Positions 1-8,440 of a stretch of 64,000 bases of DNA are shown piece by piece. The notes beneath the pieces are model-generated. The model was not told where the DNA came from and made no database searches. It worked only from the letters and a program-made list of their open reading frames with translations. The translations under genes were made by a program, and so were the position numbers. Origin of the DNA: Promethearchaeota archaeon. GTDB lineage: Archaea > Asgardarchaeota > Lokiarchaeia > Sigyniarchaeales > SOKP01. The stretch spans positions 128,001-192,000 of the forward strand of contig JAUVNS010000008.1 of the NCBI GenBank assembly GCA_030599585.1, read 5' to 3'. How positions within the stretch are numbered: the stretch's first letter is position 1; each line of letters opens with the position of its first letter.

Positions 1-623
1 GCTCCGCGCGAAATCCCAAACCTTTTTTCAATTTTTTTTAACCCCCCCTTTATCTGTAATCTCCTGAGTAAAAAACACACATCATAATGGATCTGGTTAA
101 AATCGATTCCCATTTCGTGTTGGATGAATGGAATATCAAAAGATTTACCGTAAAAAGTTGTTATTGCTGGAAATTTCGAAATAAACGCGGGAAATTCGTC
201 TAAGTTATCACCTCGGACAAAATCGTGAACGCTCACTCCATCGTAAACGGCAATAGTCGTTATATGGCTATAGTGAGGGCTTAAACCCGTGGTTTCAATA
301 TCAAGGTAAGCAATACTGTCAATTAAGTTTGGAATCATCTTCCAATGTTGTATTTTGGGTATAAGGCTTGTTAATTGGGAAATATCGAGGATTTTTAGCG
401 CTTCTATTGCTGAATTGACACCATTCCATATTGCGTTCCATTTTTGTTTTGGAAACAGTTCAGGACACTGCTTTTTTATCACATCGTTCCAACAGCATAT
501 CCCTAATTCTCTGAGTGTCGTTTCTGCCTTAACGCCAATCCCTTTTACAAAAGTAAACGAGTTAAACAGTGGATGGTCATTTTCTAAAGATAAATCGTCG
601 TCTCTTATCACGATTTCTTTCAC
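1..623 (-). CDS. YprB-like RNase H-fold (DEDD) exonuclease with N-terminal HhH motif; runs off window edge
   Basis: Not in the ORF track. Manual translation from GTG 623 (an in-frame TAA lies a few codons upstream): ...NSFTFVKGIGVKAETTLRELGICCWNDV...YLDIETTGLSPHYSHITTIAVYDG...TFYGKSFDIPFI...HYDVCFLLRRLQIKGGLKKIEKRFGISRG. Contains DIETTG, FxGKSFDIP and GGLKxIE motifs. Confidence 0.85.
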   Translation of the reverse strand, partial: MKEIVIRDDDLSLENDHPLFNSFTFVKGIGVKAETTLRELGICCWNDVIKKQCPELFPKQKWNAIWNGVNSAIEALKILDISQLTSLIPKIQHWKMIPNLIDSIAYLDIETTGLSPHYSHITTIAVYDGVSVHDFVRGDNLDEFPAFISKFPAITTFYGKSFDIPFIQHEMGIDFNQIHYDVCFLLRRLQIKGGLKKIEKRFGISRG

Positions 624-707
624 ACTATTAGTTTGAGATGTATTAAAGATAATTTTTTAGTAATAAGTTACAATTTGAAATCGCATATTTAAACTTTTTG
701 GGTAATG

Positions 708-738
708 TACGGAGCGTATCTAAATAATACGCAGCGTA
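708..738. promoter_or_regulatory. Pair of TACG-N3-CGTA palindromic boxes (candidate operator) upstream of the exonuclease gene
   Basis: TACGGAGCGTA at 708-718 and TACGCAGCGTA at 728-738, 20-bp period. They lie just upstream of a minus-strand TTTAAATA TATA-like box at 686-693. Confidence 0.45.
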
Positions 739-776
739 AGTAAAGTAAAACATAAATATTGGTTCCAACTTTTAAC

Positions 777-830
777 CAAAACAAAACAAAACAAAACAAA
801 AAAACAAAACAAAACAAAATCAAAACAAAA
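777..830 (-). repeat. (CAAAA)n microsatellite, about 10 copies; U-rich (TTTTG)n on minus strand, probable terminator of the micro-ORF transcript
   Basis: caaaacaaaacaaaacaaaacaaaaaaacaaaacaaaacaaaatcaaaacaaaa. Archaeal intrinsic terminators are oligo-U tracts; the terminator role is inferred. Confidence 0.7.
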
Positions 831-963
831 TCTCTGCTTTTGCATTCGTTCGCGATTGGTTTATCATTTTAGAAGAGATTTTATTTCCCCATCTGAATCT
901 CTTATTAAAAAATTGGTTGTAATTCTAAAAATAAAGTGGTTTAAAAATAGTTAAAAAAAATAA

Positions 964-1038
964 TTAATATCTTAATGTTGTAATATGATATCTCGTCGGG
1001 TTTAGGATTGTTTGGGTATCCATTTCTTTTCTTTTCAT
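964..1038 (-). CDS. Micro-ORF C, 24 aa: MKRKEMDTQTILNPTRYHITTLRY
   Basis: ATG at 1038, TAA at 966-964. AAGGT SD-like motif at 1051-1047, 8 nt upstream (accaAGGTAAAAgcatATG). Confidence 0.55.
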   Translation of the reverse strand: MKRKEMDTQTILNPTRYHITTLRY

Positions 1039-1154
1039 ATGCTTTTACCTTGGTTTTTTAATATGGTTTTTTAATTATGTGTAGTATTTGTCGTTAAATC
1101 GCAATTTTTTATTGTTATTAGGTTATTATTATAGAAAAAATGTGTTAATTACAT

Positions 1155-1226
1155 TTACATATCAAAACGGTCAGGAAAATATCCGCCGTTTCTGATGATT
1201 ATCGTTCTTTTCTCGCTATTTTTCAT
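1155..1226 (-). CDS. Micro-ORF B, 23 aa: MKNSEKRTIIIRNGGYFPDRFDM
   Basis: ATG at 1226, TAA at 1157-1155. GAGGT SD 8 nt upstream (gcGAGGTAAAAAAAAATG). Confidence 0.6.
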   Translation of the reverse strand: MKNSEKRTIIIRNGGYFPDRFDM

Positions 1227-1309
1227 TTTTTTTTACCTCGCTTTTTTTTTGGGTTTTGTTTATTTTCTTTTTTGGTTATTGGTGGAAAAATTATTAAAAA
1301 AAATTATTT

Positions 1310-1384
1310 CTAAAATCTTAAAACTAAATTTTCAGGATTGAAGTTTTTCGCAAATCTAACTTCTTTTATTTCGGTTCTTTCCAT
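1310..1384 (-). CDS. Micro-ORF A, 24 aa: MERTEIKEVRFAKNFNPENLVLRF
   Basis: ATG at 1384, TAG at 1312-1310. Strong AGGAGGT SD at 1400-1394, 9 nt upstream. Confidence 0.65.
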   Translation of the reverse strand: MERTEIKEVRFAKNFNPENLVLRF

Positions 1385-1457
1385 GATTTTTTTACCTCCT
1401 TTTTTTGGTTTTTTTTTTTTTTTTAATTCCTGGTGTTTTATTTTTAAAATTTTTTAA

Positions 1458-1745
1458 TTAAAAATTGATTAGATTATTTCTATATGCCAAAATTCTCGTA
1501 TCAAGGTTCGCATTCACAGCGTTTATGCATTTGACTTCCTCGTTAATTTTCGCATTTAATTTAACTTTATTGAACACTTTCCTAAGTTTCTTTTTAATCG
1601 ATTGTGATTCAAGTTTTTCAGTCGTAGCCTTCCTGACCAGCACCTGAGGCCGTAGCACCTCAGGTGCTTGGAGTTGGAAAGGAACCTGGCTATCGATGCT
1701 GGCGCTTTTTTCCTCTGCTTGTTTTTTTATTGTTGCTTGAGCCAT
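1458..1745 (-). CDS. Small basic hypothetical protein, 95 aa (MAQATIKKQ...YRNNLINF); first gene of the micro-ORF array
   Basis: ORF track 1458..1757. ATG at 1745 is preceded by the SD-like AGGATGTGA and a long A-rich leader. No recognisable family. Confidence 0.6.
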   Translation of the reverse strand: MAQATIKKQAEEKSASIDSQVPFQLQAPEVLRPQVLVRKATTEKLESQSIKKKLRKVFNKVKLNAKINEEVKCINAVNANLDTRILAYRNNLINF

Positions 1746-1811
1746 TTTTCTTATCACATCCTTTTTTTTTTTTTTCAGTTTTCTTTTTTTTGTTTCTAAT
1801 TTTATTTAGTT

Positions 1812-1888
1812 CCGAAGTTTAATATAGTTTGACTTCTTGAAGTTCGAACGAACTTCGAACTTCGGTGCGAATCGCAAACCTTAAATAC
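1812..1888. promoter_or_regulatory. Divergent promoter region with inverted-repeat operator GAAGTTCGAA-N5-TTCGAACTTC
   Basis: Perfect 10-bp arms at 1839-1848 and 1854-1863. Additional GAAGTT/AACTTC half-sites (CCGAAGTT 1812-1819 vs AACTTCGG 1858-1865). Minus-strand TATA-like TATATTAAA near 1818-1826; plus-strand aaaccTTAAATA at 1877-1887. Confidence 0.6.
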
Positions 1889-1909
1889 CTACAAGACCAT
1901 AATATAACT

Positions 1910-4876
1910 ATGAGTATAACAAAATATCCACCTGAAGGTATAATTACACCTATGAAAATCAACAAAGATTTTGAATATATTATACTCTGGATGCTCTATA
2001 ACAACGATCACTGCACTTGGTCTGAATTTAAGTCAAAACCTGTAAACATTAGTCCAGCGACATTATCAAAATACTTGAATATTTTGATAAGTAACGGTCT
2101 TATTGAGAAGGAAAAGAAAGGAGAGTATAGGATTACCCCTGAAGGTCGGATACAATATGCGGAGTTACAGGTTAAAGGCTCATTGGAGAAATCTCTGAAT
2201 TATCCTCCTGAGATTATAACAAAAACTAGGGAATATGATCATTGGATTCTCTGGATGCTTTATAATAATGCGTATTGTAAGTGGTCCGATTTTATTGAAC
2301 CCCCTCTTTCAATCAATCAATCTTCATTATCAAAAAACCTGAATCTTTTATTAGATAAAGATCTCATTGAAAAAAATAATCGTGAGTATAGAGTTACAAG
2401 GGACGGTGAAATAGAGTACTTCAAAGTGTTAAAAACATATGATTTAGATCGCCAATCAATATTGGACGAAGAAAGCAAAAGAGTTGAAGTCATTACAGAT
2501 AAGGTTGGCAAATTCTTTGACGAATACAAGATAGAAGATGATGAGATTAGATATCGTTTCTTGAACATGGTCTTAAGGTTAGATTATACTAAGGTTGAGG
2601 CTACTTTGTCAGACGAGGTAGATTTTGATAAAATTTTGTTATTTTTATCGATAAATCACCCTAACAATTATCCTAATTATATTACAGCAAAAGATTTTGC
2701 GTTAGAGTATGATATAAAGCTAACAACATTGGACTTTTTTATAGAAAAAATCGTGGAAGATAAACTTTACGCGATTAAATTCTTTAAATTAAATGTTGAC
2801 AGTAAAATTACATATTACATCCAAGCTGAAGAAAGATTAGAAAAAATGTTAGGCGTAATCATTGAAGACTATATTAGGAAGTTCACATATTTGAGTAAGT
2901 TTCAGAAAAAAAATGGAGATCAATATCAAACGCCTGATATCAACCAATTACTCTACAATGTCCTAGAAGATTTATGTAATAATCTATTCAATGAAGGATT
3001 GAAACAGCCACTCAGGAAATTTTTAATCGAATATATTGAACATTTAGCATATAAATTTGAAACAGAGAAGAGTTTAATTAACCATACAGATAAAATAAAG
3101 GGGATTGCGTTTCAAAATGTGTTTGAAGTAATACAAAGCTTTGGAACATCGGAGACGGTGAATACGATAAGCACCCCTCCTGATAATGAATCCTTTTACT
3201 TTTTGCACAATAGAATTTTTGACACATTGGACATACTGTATTTATCGAAAATAGATTATATTCGAACCGCTGAGTTCAAAGAGACATATTTTCCGAAAAA
3301 TGGAGAATTTTTAACGAAGATTGAGCGTAAATTGGCGAAAGGAAGAGTATTGAAAGTAAACGAACTGCTTACTGCTAATCTTAAGAATCTAAGCGAAATA
3401 GAATTGATGATCCTGAAGGATTTAATTTACACATATAACGGAGAATTAGAAGAGTCACTAAACCTAACAAAAGAAATCATAGAAGCTCATCCTAACGAAT
3501 ATGTAGGGTATCTTTTTCAAGCCATTTCATATTTTTTTATGGGAAGATTCAAGGAAGCGTTGGATATTATCGAATTAGGTTTGAACATGTCCTATAATGT
3601 CTTGTTGATCTCTCAAAAAGCGCAAATTCTCATTAATTCCGATCACAAAAAAGCACTTGAAGTCGTAGATGAAGTTATTGAAGATTATCCAGATAATTTC
3701 GCTTTAGCACGCACGAAATTTCTAATTGAAATGACGGATAAAGAATGCTGCATACGAAATATTGACGAACCTTTGAATTTGATAAATTCACTTATAAGCT
3801 CGAATCCTGACGATTCAGAACTCTCAATACTAAAAGCGATATTATACATTGTGACCAATAAGTATAAGGAAGCAAAAAACTGGATTAAACAGACCGTAGA
3901 ATTCAATTTACTTAAAGGTAGTCCGAGAGTTGATACTGCTGCGTACTTAATACTATCATATTCATATTTAGCTAGGGGTAAATTTGAAAAGGCTTTAGAT
4001 ATTGTCAGCAAAGTCAGATTTCACTATCCAAATCACCCACTTTCACATATTATTACTGGTTTAGTTCACGGATTCAACATAGTCTACAAATTCGATCCAA
4101 GTAAAGCAAACAAAGAGCTATTTAGAGAAGAATTTCAGAAAGCAGAAGCAAATGAACAGAGTAAGAAGAAGTTGTCTAGGTATTATCAACTGGAAAGTTA
4201 TATTTTGAATGAGATAGATGGTCTTGAAGAGGCAATAAAAGTAATCGATAAAGCAATTAAATTAAGTCCGGAGCACTACGATATTCATAGCACAAAAGCC
4301 CATCTATATTTAGCCTATAGCGATAAAGGAGAAGAAGTTTTAGCATTTTACGATGAATTATTAGAGAAATTCCCTACTGAAGATAAAAGCATTCGCCAGA
4401 TGAAATCATTCTCTTATTTTGCGATGGGAAATGTAACAGAAGGAATTAAAATTCTTAAAGAAGGTCTTAAAGTTTACCCTGATGCGATAGGAATGTTAAA
4501 CAACCTCGCCGTATTCTTAAGTGATACAGGAAAATTTGAAGAAGCTTTGGAGACAATTGAAAAAGCTATTGAAATTGACCCACTCGAAGCAAATCTATAC
4601 GATACATACGGAGAAATATTAATGTTTGGTAAGGATTACAAATCAGCTATAGAAAAATTTTATCAAGCGTTAGAGATGAGTCCAACGGGATGGTTTAGGT
4701 TTCATACATTCTTAAAACTCTCGAAATGTTATCAAAGTCTAGGAATGCTTGAGGAAGCTACAACCTGCCACGATAAAGCAAAAATTTTAACGGAAAAAGT
4801 TATACCTGGAAAAAGAAAGGTATATTTAGATCAATTAGAAGCGAGTTTTGAAGATTTAACCACTTCTGAAAAGTAA
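1910..4876 (+). CDS. Large regulator: two tandem N-terminal winged-HTH (MarR/ArsR-like) repeats plus C-terminal TPR array
   Basis: Internal duplication YPP..I..(F/Y)..ILWMLYNN..C.WS.F...P..I....LSK.LN.L....LIEK....Y..T.(E/D)G, present twice. C-terminal TPRs such as LNNLAVFLSDTGKFEEALETIEKAIEIDP and YDTYGEILMFGKDYKSAIEKFYQALEMSP. Start moved to ATG 1910, about 22 nt after the TATA-like box (leaderless-type spacing). Confidence 0.85.
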   Translation: MSITKYPPEGIITPMKINKDFEYIILWMLYNNDHCTWSEFKSKPVNISPATLSKYLNILISNGLIEKEKKGEYRITPEGRIQYAELQVKGSLEKSLNYPPEIITKTREYDHWILWMLYNNAYCKWSDFIEPPLSINQSSLSKNLNLLLDKDLIEKNNREYRVTRDGEIEYFKVLKTYDLDRQSILDEESKRVEVITDKVGKFFDEYKIEDDEIRYRFLNMVLRLDYTKVEATLSDEVDFDKILLFLSINHPNNYPNYITAKDFALEYDIKLTTLDFFIEKIVEDKLYAIKFFKLNVDSKITYYIQAEERLEKMLGVIIEDYIRKFTYLSKFQKKNGDQYQTPDINQLLYNVLEDLCNNLFNEGLKQPLRKFLIEYIEHLAYKFETEKSLINHTDKIKGIAFQNVFEVIQSFGTSETVNTISTPPDNESFYFLHNRIFDTLDILYLSKIDYIRTAEFKETYFPKNGEFLTKIERKLAKGRVLKVNELLTANLKNLSEIELMILKDLIYTYNGELEESLNLTKEIIEAHPNEYVGYLFQAISYFFMGRFKEALDIIELGLNMSYNVLLISQKAQILINSDHKKALEVVDEVIEDYPDNFALARTKFLIEMTDKECCIRNIDEPLNLINSLISSNPDDSELSILKAILYIVTNKYKEAKNWIKQTVEFNLLKGSPRVDTAAYLILSYSYLARGKFEKALDIVSKVRFHYPNHPLSHIITGLVHGFNIVYKFDPSKANKELFREEFQKAEANEQSKKKLSRYYQLESYILNEIDGLEEAIKVIDKAIKLSPEHYDIHSTKAHLYLAYSDKGEEVLAFYDELLEKFPTEDKSIRQMKSFSYFAMGNVTEGIKILKEGLKVYPDAIGMLNNLAVFLSDTGKFEEALETIEKAIEIDPLEANLYDTYGEILMFGKDYKSAIEKFYQALEMSPTGWFRFHTFLKLSKCYQSLGMLEEATTCHDKAKILTEKVIPGKRKVYLDQLEASFEDLTTSEK

Positions 4877-4908
4877 ATCAACTTTACTTAATATATTTTT
4901 TCTATTTT

Positions 4909-6039
4909 TTATTTTTTATGTTCTTTTACGAGTTTTACCAAGTCTGCTTTCCTATAAGAAGCGAGCACTTTAAGATCGTTTTCAATACAATATTCTTTTA
5001 GTTTTTTTACCGTCCACTTGTTATAATCAAGCGGTTGTTCAGTGATTTCTTGAAGGGGTCCACCTCGGATGAGGTTAATAATTTGCGCTTTTCTATAGGA
5101 TGTTGGAACTGAAATGTTGTTTTCTTTGCAGTATAGTTTCAATTTCTTTACTGTCCAGGAATTGTAGTCTATTTCGTCTTTCTCTTCTATAATTTTTTCT
5201 TCAATTTTGGAAGTATCAAGTTTTTGGAGAATTTCTATTCCCTCAATACTACCAGAATTGGAATCAACATAGAGTCTTATAGTTCGATCTTTAAGTTCAA
5301 TTGGTCCTTCTGGTATTGAACTAACAGGTTCCCATTCGGTTTCCTCTATCTCTTTCCCGAAAACTTTTGCTTTTTTGACTGCTGCTCCGTAAATTTGAAA
5401 ATTCCCTAAAATCAAATTTTGTCTTTTAAAAGTAGCGGGAACTTTGTTTTTCACAATTTTATTAATCAATTTTTTATTATCTAACTTAGGTGGTTTGATT
5501 GTCTGTTGAGGTTTAGGGGCAATGACATAATCCTTCTTTTTTCCAATTAATGTGGATTTAACGTCACCATTAAGAGTCGGAGGTGGACCTTGCCATCCGT
5601 GAACCTTTTTATCTTTAGTTTCTGCAGATTCCTTGAGAGAAGACTGGTGTAAATGTTTAAACTCTATAGAGTTTCTTTCTAAGATTTCAGGAACTTCGGC
5701 TGTTTTAAAATTAAAGGCTCTCATAAATTCGTTGGGTTCATCTCCTTGATCTACTGAAATAATCTTACATCGATGGAAGTGGCTGTTAACAACTAAATCG
5801 TTTTGTAATTCAGCGGCAATCCGAGATGCTATAAATTTTTTCCTGACATGTGAATTGACGCCTTTCCAGATATAGATTCTCCTTAACCCCTCCTTGACAA
5901 TTATTAACACTTGGTTCGGATCTAATACATCTTGACCATTATTCAACAGAAAGGTATCTTCAGAAATATCTAACTTGACTTTTTCTCCGGTACTTTCTAG
6001 TCCAAAGATCATAAAGTTCTCATAAATTTCAGACATCAT
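4909..6039 (-). CDS. Single gelsolin/villin-like domain protein with two C-terminal SAP/HeH-like repeats
   Basis: Gelsolin-like segment VLDPNQVLIIV..RRIYIWKGVNSHVRKKFIA..IISVDQGDEPNEF. C-terminal repeats DYNSWTVKKLKLYCKENNISVPTSYRKAQIINLI and DYNKWTVKKLKEYCIENDLKVLASYRKADLVKLV. Confidence 0.75.
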   Translation of the reverse strand: MMSEIYENFMIFGLESTGEKVKLDISEDTFLLNNGQDVLDPNQVLIIVKEGLRRIYIWKGVNSHVRKKFIASRIAAELQNDLVVNSHFHRCKIISVDQGDEPNEFMRAFNFKTAEVPEILERNSIEFKHLHQSSLKESAETKDKKVHGWQGPPPTLNGDVKSTLIGKKKDYVIAPKPQQTIKPPKLDNKKLINKIVKNKVPATFKRQNLILGNFQIYGAAVKKAKVFGKEIEETEWEPVSSIPEGPIELKDRTIRLYVDSNSGSIEGIEILQKLDTSKIEEKIIEEKDEIDYNSWTVKKLKLYCKENNISVPTSYRKAQIINLIRGGPLQEITEQPLDYNKWTVKKLKEYCIENDLKVLASYRKADLVKLVKEHKK

Positions 6040-6358
6040 TAAATACGATTTTTTTTTAAAATTTAAAAATGAGACAACTCTTACGAATTTTGAAAATCCA
6101 TTCTCTTTGTACTCAAATTAATATTGTAATAAATTTAAAATTGCTAAATACAACATCTTGTATTAACATTTAAAATTATTGAAATAGAAAATTTCGCACA
6201 TATATAAACACGTAAAGTAAATTAATTCTGCACAAATCATGCTCAATCTGCTTTTTAGTATAGTTTATTAGTCATTATCTATTTTAATCGTTAAGTTTAG
6301 GGATATTTAGTTTATTCTTATCTAATTCCTCTCGAAAATTGTTTAAGGTTATTAATTT

Positions 6359-7573
6359 ATGAATGAGAACAACAACCGAAAACTCTTCAAATATAAAATG
6401 TTAACACCTTTATGGATTGCGATCTTTATAGATGTTTTAGGCTTCACAATTCTTTTTCCAATGGTAGGTTATTTTAGCGAGCTTTTCAATACTTCGCAAA
6501 CGATGATTGGTTTAATTTTTTCTGTTAATGCTATGTTTGGTTTTGTTTTTGGACCTATTTTAGCAAAACTCAGTGATAAATACGGAAGAAAGCCGCTATT
6601 ATTAATTTCTCAATTTGGAACACTTTTGGCTTTTATATTAACCGCTTTTTCAGGCAATTTAATGATGTTAGTAATAGCGCGTATGATTGACGGCATGTTT
6701 GGAGGAAATTTCCCTATTGCAAAAGCTATTATTAGCGATAGAGTCCCACCAAAAGATCGGGGTATTCAAATGGCTAATGTGGGAATTGCGCATGTTTTAG
6801 CTTCATTAATTGGCCCAGCCATAGGTGGATTTTTCTTCACATATTTTGGGCTTTTAGGACCTGGATTATTTGCAGCGGGATTTACAGTTATTACGATTAT
6901 AGTTACTATAGTTATGTTGGAGGAAACCTGGACAAAAGAAGATAGAGCTCAGAACCATCGAGAGAAACTTGAAACTTCGCTTAAAATAAGGAATAATAAA
7001 AACGCTCTGTTCATGTTAGTTCTCTGGGCTTTTCATACGATTTCATTCACCACAGTTATGACTTCTATATCCTTTTTTAGTGCTAGCGTTTTGCATCTCG
7101 AACCACTTGAAATGTCTTTTCTATTTATGATCTCTGGCATTTTTAGAGCTGGAGTGAGATTTACACTTTTTAAACCCACGATAAGAAAACTTGGGGAGAG
7201 TAATGCAATACGATTAGGATTAGCTATGTTTGTTGTAAGCTTTTTTTTATTAGGTTTTTCTACAAATGTTATCGCTGTCATAATACTTTTTATGTTTATC
7301 AGTTTTGCTGCCTCCTTAACCCGGGGGCCTTTGAATAGTAAAATTAGTCAAACAGCATCTCCTCAGGAACAAGGCAAAATAAATGGACTTTCTTCCGCAT
7401 TGGATAGCGTCGCCCAGATATTGGGGCCCTTAATTGGACCTTTTATACTTGACACACTACCACCGTATTGGTTAGGGATAGTTGTTTCATTAATCGCATT
7501 ACCAGCACTTCTAATGTCCACGAGGAAAATAGAGAAAAAAAAATATGATCTCTCAAAGAACGCATTACTTTAA
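6359..7573 (+). CDS. MFS transporter, DHA1/TetA-like efflux family
   Basis: IFIDVLGF, motif A (AKLSDKYGRKP), ARMIDG and GPAIGG motifs; about 12 hydrophobic segments. Confidence 0.9.
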   Translation: MNENNNRKLFKYKMLTPLWIAIFIDVLGFTILFPMVGYFSELFNTSQTMIGLIFSVNAMFGFVFGPILAKLSDKYGRKPLLLISQFGTLLAFILTAFSGNLMMLVIARMIDGMFGGNFPIAKAIISDRVPPKDRGIQMANVGIAHVLASLIGPAIGGFFFTYFGLLGPGLFAAGFTVITIIVTIVMLEETWTKEDRAQNHREKLETSLKIRNNKNALFMLVLWAFHTISFTTVMTSISFFSASVLHLEPLEMSFLFMISGIFRAGVRFTLFKPTIRKLGESNAIRLGLAMFVVSFFLLGFSTNVIAVIILFMFISFAASLTRGPLNSKISQTASPQEQGKINGLSSALDSVAQILGPLIGPFILDTLPPYWLGIVVSLIALPALLMSTRKIEKKKYDLSKNALL

Positions 7574-7603
7574 TCTTAAACAAAAATAGAAAAAGTAGGA
7601 ATT

Positions 7604-8440
7604 TTACTCGTTTAAGAAATCTATTATTGTCTGATTTACTTCAGGGGCTTTTGAGAGAGGGCTACTATGACCCGCTTTATCAATTACTACAAGTTTACTA
7701 TTAGGTAATTTTTCGTGAATCTGTTCCATTGATGATTTTGACATTAACCTATCGTGAGAAGCAACAAGTATTAGGGTTGGATTTTTTATAGTATCTAATC
7801 TATCAAAAGTATCGTGAGTCTTTAAAGCTTCAGCTTGCATGGTAATGTCCTTAGCTGTTGGAGGATCTATTGTACTCATTTCTATCAAATCTTCTGCAGA
7901 CCAAAGACCATACCATTTTTTAGAAGGTTCAGCTTCTAATTGCTTTCTGAATTTTATATAGTAACTAGATCGAGTTCCAGACCACCATGCTTTAACTGGG
8001 TCTTCTTTTTTCATTTCTAACTCACTTAACCGCATATTTTTATAAACTGTAGGTCCCCCCTCGTCAGGGAAACCATAATTGGTGTTAATTAATATTATTT
8101 TATTTACTCTCTCTGGATACTTCAAAACGAAATTCTGCACGATCATTCCACCAAGGCTCCAACCCGCAATATTTGCTTTTTCAATTCCAAGATGATCCAT
8201 AAGACCGTTGATATCATCTGCGAAAACTTCCATTGTATATTCAGTATCAGGTCTATCAGATTTTCCTGCTCCACGATTATCTAATCTTATAACCTTAAAA
8301 TGTTTTGATAAATCGGGTATTTGAGCAATCCACGATTCCTTTTTCGCTCCAAATCCGTGAATTAAAAATAAAGGGTAGCCATCTCCAAAGACTTCATAAC
8401 ATAGCTTAACACCATTAACATCTGCATATTGTTCTGTCAT
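7604..8440 (-). CDS. Alpha/beta fold hydrolase (enol-lactonase/aminoacrylate hydrolase-like)
   Basis: HGFG, DNRGAGKSD, nucleophile GWSLGG, catalytic His in AGH. Confidence 0.9.
   Translation of the reverse strand: MTEQYADVNGVKLCYEVFGDGYPLFLIHGFGAKKESWIAQIPDLSKHFKVIRLDNRGAGKSDRPDTEYTMEVFADDINGLMDHLGIEKANIAGWSLGGMIVQNFVLKYPERVNKIILINTNYGFPDEGGPTVYKNMRLSELEMKKEDPVKAWWSGTRSSYYIKFRKQLEAEPSKKWYGLWSAEDLIEMSTIDPPTAKDITMQAEALKTHDTFDRLDTIKNPTLILVASHDRLMSKSSMEQIHEKLPNSKLVVIDKAGHSSPLSKAPEVNQTIIDFLNE

Follow-up and report, generated by a model that had tools for sequence, protein, structure and literature searches.

The locus described here belongs to a family of local regulatory modules that is specific to Asgard archaea. 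It lies in a 64,000-nucleotide stretch (hereafter the window; all feature positions are counted from its first letter) of a Promethearchaeota archaeon contig (JAUVNS010000008.1; C22:128001-192000 in our contig numbering), in a genome of 4.85 Mb and 52 contigs. A large protein with tandem winged helices and a tetratricopeptide repeat (TPR) solenoid, here termed the regulator, is encoded head-to-head with a divergent unit made up of a 95-residue protein (SP95) and three micro-peptides (C1, B1 and A1):

1910..4876, + strand: regulator, 988-residue open reading frame (ORF) counted from the ATG
1746-1909, no strand: intergenic region, 164 bp between SP95 and the regulator
1458..1745, - strand: SP95, 95 residues, basic and hydrophilic; opens the divergent unit
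1310..1384, - strand: C1, 24 residues, core FNPxNL, C-terminus RF; Shine-Dalgarno (SD) sequence GGAGGT; T8 tract at 1296-1303
1155..1226, - strand: B1, 23 residues, core IIIxNxG, C-terminus FDM; SD GAGGT; T6 tract at 1135-1140
964..1038, - strand: A1, 24 residues, core ILNPT.Y, C-terminus RY; SD AAGGT; T8 tract at 953-960

At least 972 homologs of the regulator exist. All source names seen among them are Asgard, and no record gives a function; the hundreds of members of the family are unnamed or tagged merely "TPR protein", and a full-text literature search found no published description of the module. A homolog search that took one genome per species gave 79 loci, 69 of which had usable upstream sequence and form the set counted below. 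An SP95-like gene and/or a micro-gene was present on the divergent strand in 46 of these 69 loci; divergent small ORFs, which an earlier note on this DNA had taken for the peptide partners of a sensing circuit, thus recur beside the homologs rather than being generally absent. Within 1 kb on that strand, SD-led micro-ORFs occurred at 0.67 per kb vs. 0.024 per kb per strand in the genome of the window. The core motif was found in 22/204 divergent-strand small ORFs vs. 1/175 same-strand controls, and the B core IIIxNxG recurs in micro-ORFs beside distant regulator subfamilies. An iterated hidden Markov model search detected SP95 relatives in 33/69 loci; they all accompany regulators of at least 817 residues, for the most part at 190-260 nt from where the regulator starts. 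The commonest divergent partner of long regulators is the SP95 family and not the micro-peptides.

When neighboring genes were clustered, the modules fell into three types by the length of the regulator (MFS, major facilitator superfamily; SAM, S-adenosylmethionine):

Regulator ~635 residues: one micro-ORF at 163-170 nt; neighbors a Ras-like GTPase and, often, oligopeptidase F
Regulator ~850 residues: SP95 and one micro-ORF; a same-strand efflux MFS gene, or an intact 238-residue radical-SAM gene after the regulator
Regulator ~990 residues: SP95; a 220-residue radical-SAM-fold gene without CxxxCxxC

The partner set shifts together with the TPR length class of the regulator, and a distinct peptide variant, at a fixed distance, goes with each regulator subfamily.

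The divergent small genes

SP95 is already a called gene in public records, and C1, B1 and A1 were not present in a collection of 15 billion proteins. Each micro-gene has an A-rich leader, an SD sequence 8-9 nt ahead of its ATG and a trailing oligo-T tract; where the micro-ORFs carry GGAGGT, GAGGT or AAGGT, the SP95 ORF carries GGATGTGA. The earlier note had described the unit as a micro-ORF array whose products end in xRF or xRY. The first gene of the unit encodes 95 residues, however, and the C-terminal pattern holds for C1 and A1 but not for B1, which ends in FDM. SP95 begins with M-A-Q-A and has a C-terminal block of the form AKxxEE..I..K..D..Y/F. It matched no Pfam or NCBIfam family (a single sub-threshold HEPN match, E 0.0056), and no usable ESM Atlas match was obtained. 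All four products are hydrophilic, and no signal sequence or hydrophobic segment was found in any of them: the highest 11-residue Kyte-Doolittle window is 0.35 for the three micro-peptides and 0.76 for SP95. The micro-peptides contain no Cys.

Conservation was followed in eight same-genus genomes whose regulators are 64-87% identical to that of the window; seven of these orthologous loci have upstream sequence. Among the seven, B is present in seven, C or a C-like gene in six, SP95 in six and A in four. SP95 is 42-65% identical in its six loci, and in L051 and L052 besides. B1 has counterparts in all seven loci, a paralog (B2) and two orphan copies; C1 has orthologs in five loci and a paralog (C2), with frame, start and SD preserved; and A1 has orthologs in four loci and a paralog (A2). 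The C, B and A families thus comprise 6-11 copies each, in which SD spacing, start, frame and length are preserved, and their amino-acid cores (B IIIxNxG, C NPxxL, A ILNPT.Y) survive nucleotide change. When the same SD-plus-leader criteria were applied genome-wide, only 30 micro-ORFs were recovered in 4.85 Mb, and 12-13 of them belong to the C, B and A families, so the small-gene array exceeds chance.

We consider it very probable that the divergent unit consists of SP95 followed by three separately terminated micro-proteins, real genes with hydrophilic, cytoplasmic-type products, and on this the earlier note was right. The alternative is that the micro-ORFs are untranslated and that an AT-rich spacer is conserved for the promoters, terminators or small RNAs it contains. 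The spacers, and the leader of the orphan cassettes described below, are indeed conserved as well as, or better than, the ORFs. Yet the start, the 8-9 nt SD spacing, the frame and the length are kept across diverged copies of each family while the motifs outlast the nucleotides; SD-led micro-ORFs are ~28-fold over the genome background on the divergent strand, to which the core motif is almost confined; and there is no Rfam family match. An Rfam scan of positions 1-8000 gave nothing reaching the gathering score and two sub-threshold, chance-level matches. The untranslated alternative is, in our view, barely credible.

Further copies of the micro-genes lie elsewhere in the genome. A second cassette (C-B-A; C22:127081-127464, minus strand, window -919 to -536, L016:11081-11464) sits just beyond the window. 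It is 86% identical to the first over aligned columns, with indels confined to the spacers, and the 22-nt block ahead of A1 is identical in both. Cassette 2 is part of a ~5-kb insertion that is missing from six orthologous loci in which the sequence further upstream was inspected. Besides the cassette, the insertion carries genes for an RNase_H_2-type exonuclease (in part within the window, at 3-623), a 99-residue membrane protein and an 886-residue protein. The latter has a weak Rce1-like/CPBP protease match and was considered as a peptide processor; the candidate was set aside, since the insertion is unique to this genome and 19 homolog loci in the genus lack a cassette. Several of its homologs (G020, G042, G048, G023, G007) carry 1-5 in-frame TAA codons, for which pseudogenes, assembly errors or recoding are possible explanations. 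A (GTTTT)n-type microsatellite (minus strand, 770-850) is found directly downstream of A1, on the boundary of the genome-specific insertion.

A tblastn search of the genome with six peptides gave no additional close copies, and an SD-pattern scan gave more diverged ones on contigs C34, C45 and C28/C8. Two of these are orphan C/B cassettes (C34:47597-47934, L013:8597-8934; C45:4733-5107, L014), neither of which lies beside a family regulator. The C34 cassette is located between the genes for the CCA-adding enzyme and aEF-2, upstream of aEF-2; this unit shows 77-87% nucleotide identity in at least seven genus genomes, with a leader that exceeds the ORFs in conservation. A GNAT gene of ~200 residues lies near both orphan cassettes. 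At C28:16292-16614 and C8:13221-13307, between NUDIX genes and SepSecS, there are SD-led micro-ORFs of 28 and 25 residues that both start M-x-Y-N-K-K; the 28-residue micro-ORF of C28 has an identical duplicate on C8.

Regulator architecture and candidate operator

The regulator is taken to start at the ATG at 1910, because the ortholog alignment begins there and an in-frame GTG at 1865 would overlie the candidate operator. Pfam identified two HTH_45/MarR-type winged helices (residues ~21-86 and ~109-168), with HTH_45 scoring 50.3 bits against a cut-off of 25.5 over two stretches and MarR 35.3 against 24.6; in NCBIfam the closest families are the Sso10a, Sta1 and Lrs14 winged helix-turn-helix (wHTH) families. 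The C-terminal half matches many TPR families above their cut-offs (TPR_19, E 3.6e-27; TPR_2, E 2.9e-22). An AlphaFold2 model built with 42 homologs (predicted local distance difference test score 82.5) gave the following layout, all on the + strand:

Residues 21-75, nt 1970-2134: first winged helix (wH1)
Residues 109-162, nt 2234-2395: second winged helix (wH2)
Residues 211-305, nt 2540-2824: third winged-helix-like unit
Residues 309-409: long helices, followed by a disordered linker that separates them from the TPR solenoid
Residues 434-988, nt 3209-4873: TPR solenoid of paired helices

The model shows units of helix-helix-helix-strand-strand topology. Two N-terminal wHTH domains and a long C-terminal TPR array in a 988-residue protein are thus confirmed, as the earlier note had read them. 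The best PDB-profile and Foldseek matches of the solenoid are TPR proteins of the canonical kind (consensus TPRs, OGT, APC7/Cdc27, Hop, Tom70, TTC7B). Receptors of the RRNPP family were absent from the PDB profile matches ranked 1-60 out of 194 and from the 50 highest-ranked Foldseek matches of the TPR part. Assignment of the middle domain (176-432) as cyclin/TFIIB-like or Zur/PerR-like was rejected, since its Z values of 5.7-8.7 are in the chance range for helical models. The N-terminal region is nearly invariant. Among paralogs, the N-terminal 400 residues are 46-50% identical and the TPR part, which is of variable length, ~33%.

The intergenic region contains these elements:

1839..1865, no strand: candidate operator, inverted repeat GAAGTTCG-AA-CGAACTTC, then a third half-site GAACTTCGG
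1812-1819, no strand: distal partner of the operator, CCGAAGTT
1819..1828, - strand: TATA-like box in the small-gene direction, AACTATATTAAAC on the minus strand, read from the sequence
1880..1890, + strand: TATA-like box in the regulator direction, CCTTAAATACC, ~25 nt ahead of the regulator ATG, read from the sequence

The palindrome sits between the two divergent TATA-like boxes, and operator and boxes are conserved in seven orthologous intergenic regions. The head-to-head arrangement across a shared intergenic region of ~165 bp that the earlier note described is borne out. The two boxes would be the promoters for the two directions, and the regulator mRNA is probably leaderless, because its box lies so close to the ATG. 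A sigma-70 promoter scan was set aside as inapplicable to an archaeal host. The exact palindrome was found nowhere else in the genome, the regions upstream of the orphan cassettes included. Across the family, the half-site octamer is over-represented 37-fold in the 260 nt that precede regulators (1.29 vs. 0.035 per kb over the 69 loci); it is present in 19/69 loci, and similar half-sites precede distant regulators that are merely 42-50% identical. This family-wide conservation of the half-site fits the nearly invariant N-terminal region.

The winged helices of the regulator probably bind the GAAGTTCG palindrome. From this site, next to back-to-back TATA-like boxes, the regulator could control its own transcript as well as the divergent unit.

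Candidate roles of the small products

How the small products relate to the regulator is less certain. The most likely arrangement, which we favor tentatively and at less than even confidence, is a closed loop in which SP95 and/or a micro-peptide binds the TPR solenoid and thereby changes operator occupancy. Among these putative ligands, SP95 would be at least as likely as a micro-peptide. An intracellular partner switch is favored over a secreted pheromone, because the products have no export signal; the efflux pump gene described below would keep export possible.

Several observations count against this closed loop. In the nearest large subfamily (>900 residues), micro-ORFs were detected in just 5/27 loci. 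Pooled pN/pS values (B 0.49, C 0.70, A 0.55) are merely moderately below 1, that is, constraint on the micro-genes is moderate. Among assembled contigs from RNA libraries, two metatranscriptome runs span just the 5' part of the regulator; the run that covers A1/B1 and SP95, with one contig spanning A1/B1, is of uncertain type, and A1/B1 lie outside the coverage of the clear RNA runs. Cassette 2 and the C34 and C45 cassettes share an extremely conserved promoter/leader of ~110 nt (GGTTCATCAAATGTTCAAGAGTCCATTC ... AAAAACTAATTATG) that is unlike the operator of the regulator locus. Because C/B cassettes thus occur at three operator-less places with a different conserved promoter, the peptides would also be made under control other than that of the regulator. 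Finally, the divergent gene may simply be a regulated target, since other paralogs face genes of other kinds: opposite the four regulator paralogs of this genome lie a Ras-like GTPase gene, a HATPase_c gene, a membrane protein gene or a ~66-residue ORF that starts like SP95. The paralog at C21:103031 (L005) faces a 186-residue Ras-family GTPase and that at C21:259869 (L002) a 258-residue HATPase_c protein, with no micro-ORF in the short gaps.

The last two observations also speak for an output-only arrangement, in which the regulator acts as a plain local transcription factor, its TPR part binds another protein or ligand, and SP95 and the micro-proteins are regulated cargo that acts elsewhere: the cargo of the family is unrelated from paralog to paralog, and one of the separately driven C/B cassettes is kept upstream of aEF-2 in at least seven genomes. 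Against it, partner set and TPR length class change jointly, and every regulator subfamily has a peptide variant of its own at a fixed distance, although both patterns of co-variation could be explained by vertical inheritance alone. We regard the output-only arrangement as possible, if somewhat unlikely.

Two genes lie downstream of the regulator:

4909-6039, - strand: gelsolin-domain protein with two C-terminal SAP/HeH/Ish1-type motifs
6359..7573, + strand: DHA1-type (Tet-like) MFS efflux transporter (Pfam MFS_1, NCBIfam efflux families), a tentative member of the module

The gelsolin gene, which lies between the regulator and the MFS gene, is a typical Asgard "eukaryotic signature" gene and also fits an Asgard origin of the locus. 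In 5/5 orthologous genomes tested, orthologs of the MFS transporter (77-81% identity) are encoded on the strand of the regulator, at 4.4-5.8 kb from where it starts. A different efflux MFS family adjoins 20/69 distant family loci. In five distant loci (L122, L094, L096, L124, L080) the gene right after SP95 and the micro-peptide, likewise on the divergent strand, encodes a Mef/EntS-like efflux MFS; in L122 a 58-residue zinc-ribbon ORF intervenes. Oligopeptidase F adjoins nine family loci.

These neighbors agree with RRNPP-like cell-cell signaling, in which the peptides would be exported, perhaps by the MFS pump, accumulate, re-enter, bind the TPR part and switch the promoter. As in Rgg/SHP, short-peptide genes are divergent from a regulator that joins TPR to DNA-binding domains. 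Communication peptides without a leader set a precedent, a signal sequence not being obligatory (PMC10518010). The peptides of the window are hydrophilic, however, with neither signal nor hydrophobic segment, and no importer was identified here. The TPR part is canonical rather than of RRNPP type and the DNA-binding domain is a wHTH; three dissimilar peptides stand beside SP95, and orphan cassettes exist. Pump synteny at the level of a genus is weak evidence, and the gelsolin gene intervenes. Such signaling is, on balance, quite improbable.

A further alternative is that SP95 and/or the micro-peptides are precursors like those of ribosomally synthesized and post-translationally modified peptides (RiPPs), that is, substrates of a modifying enzyme, and that the regulator runs a small natural-product locus. 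In 30/69 loci, all of them in sister subfamilies, the gene immediately after the regulator encodes a radical-SAM protein, and an efflux MFS gene is a frequent neighbor. The CxxxCxxC motif is intact just in the 238-residue form beside ~850-residue regulators (L102, L109, L111, L116, L117), and two SP95 relatives beside intact radical-SAM genes (L111, L117) end in G-V-Y. Mycofactocin precursors likewise end in G-V-Y. Against this reading, the 220-residue form beside the ~990-residue regulators of the nearest subfamily (L053-L085) has lost the cluster motif. No radical-SAM ortholog was found in the locus, in the orthologous loci or in the genome, where the best match, on another contig, is 36% identical. 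The sister enzyme is small (220-238 residues), without a Pfam or NCBIfam match to SPASM, twitch or RiPP recognition element (RRE) families at cut-off, and the micro-peptides lack Cys. We therefore judge a RiPP-like role highly unlikely.

Comparison with known systems and significance

In Bacillota, the RRNPP(A) systems (Rgg/SHP, PlcR/PapR, NprR/NprX, Rap/Phr, PrgX, AimR) have, like the regulator, a cytoplasmic DNA-binding domain joined to TPR-type repeats. Genes for peptides of ~20-25 residues are likewise adjacent, here in divergent orientation, and in both cases paralogs have expanded, each with its own peptide variant. In contrast, those systems belong to Bacillota or their plasmids and phages, whereas every named homolog here comes from Promethearchaeota/Asgard metagenome-assembled genomes. 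Their DNA-binding domain is an XRE/Cro-type helix-turn-helix (or the Rap three-helix bundle) and not a tandem of winged helices, and their 5-9 degenerate repeats contrast with a canonical TPR solenoid of ~550 residues. The window also has several dissimilar peptides and a 95-residue protein, without a signal sequence or an SHP-like hydrophobic tail. Because taxon and DNA-binding domain fall outside the definition of the receptor family (PMC10075063, PMC9765709), the locus resembles RRNPP in layout alone and is not a member. The RRNPP-like logic put forward in the earlier note is thus supported in part, by the conserved small genes, the recurrence and the operator. The canonical TPR, the wHTH domains, the missing export signal, SP95 as the main partner and the orphan cassettes lend it no support; the absence of a hydrophobic signal sequence and the winged helix in place of a Cro-type domain were differences that the note itself had listed, correctly.

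Streptococci have radical-SAM RiPP loci under quorum-sensing control (streptide and other RaS-RiPPs). Sister subfamilies of the module resemble them in that small peptide genes are combined with a TPR regulator, an exporter and a gene of the radical-SAM type. The locus of the window differs in having no radical-SAM gene, and the sister enzyme is a 220-238-residue core with no recognized SPASM or RRE, its cluster motif lost in most loci.

Canonical TPR domains use their concave groove to bind C-terminal tails or peptides in extended form. Hop/Stip1, Tom70, OGT and the APC/C subunits Cdc27 and APC7 are the best profile and fold matches of the C-terminal half of the regulator. Unlike the regulator, these proteins have no fusion to DNA-binding winged helices, and any ligand of the regulator is putative. 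The closest families of both N-terminal domains are archaeal winged-helix regulators and chromatin proteins (HTH_45, MarR, Sso10a, Sta1, Lrs14), and a palindromic site by TATA boxes fits them. These proteins, however, are single-domain dimers of ~100-150 residues, whereas the regulator has tandem copies, a third winged-helix-like unit and ~550 residues of TPR.

Asgard archaea are the closest prokaryotic relatives of eukaryotes, and little is known of their signal sensing and gene regulation. The micro-genes that accompany the regulator family are overlooked by annotation pipelines. Even on a plain reading, the locus offers a testable regulon, with a defined candidate operator, two promoters and four small products, together with conserved archaeal micro-proteins. 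Should the small products prove to be ligands, a peptide-receptor logic so far restricted to Bacillota would extend to Archaea, and part of the large Asgard TPR expansion would gain a function. A bolder proposal, which we hold to be unlikely, is that Loki-type Asgard archaea possess a large, diversifying family of cognate receptor-peptide modules, in which SP95-type proteins and/or micro-peptides would be read by the TPR part of their wHTH-TPR regulator as signals; in some modules a radical-SAM enzyme, oligopeptidase F, a Ras-like GTPase or an efflux pump would be added. If this were true, no peptide-based system of regulation or communication would have been described in Archaea before it, and the locus of the window would be its three-peptide variant.

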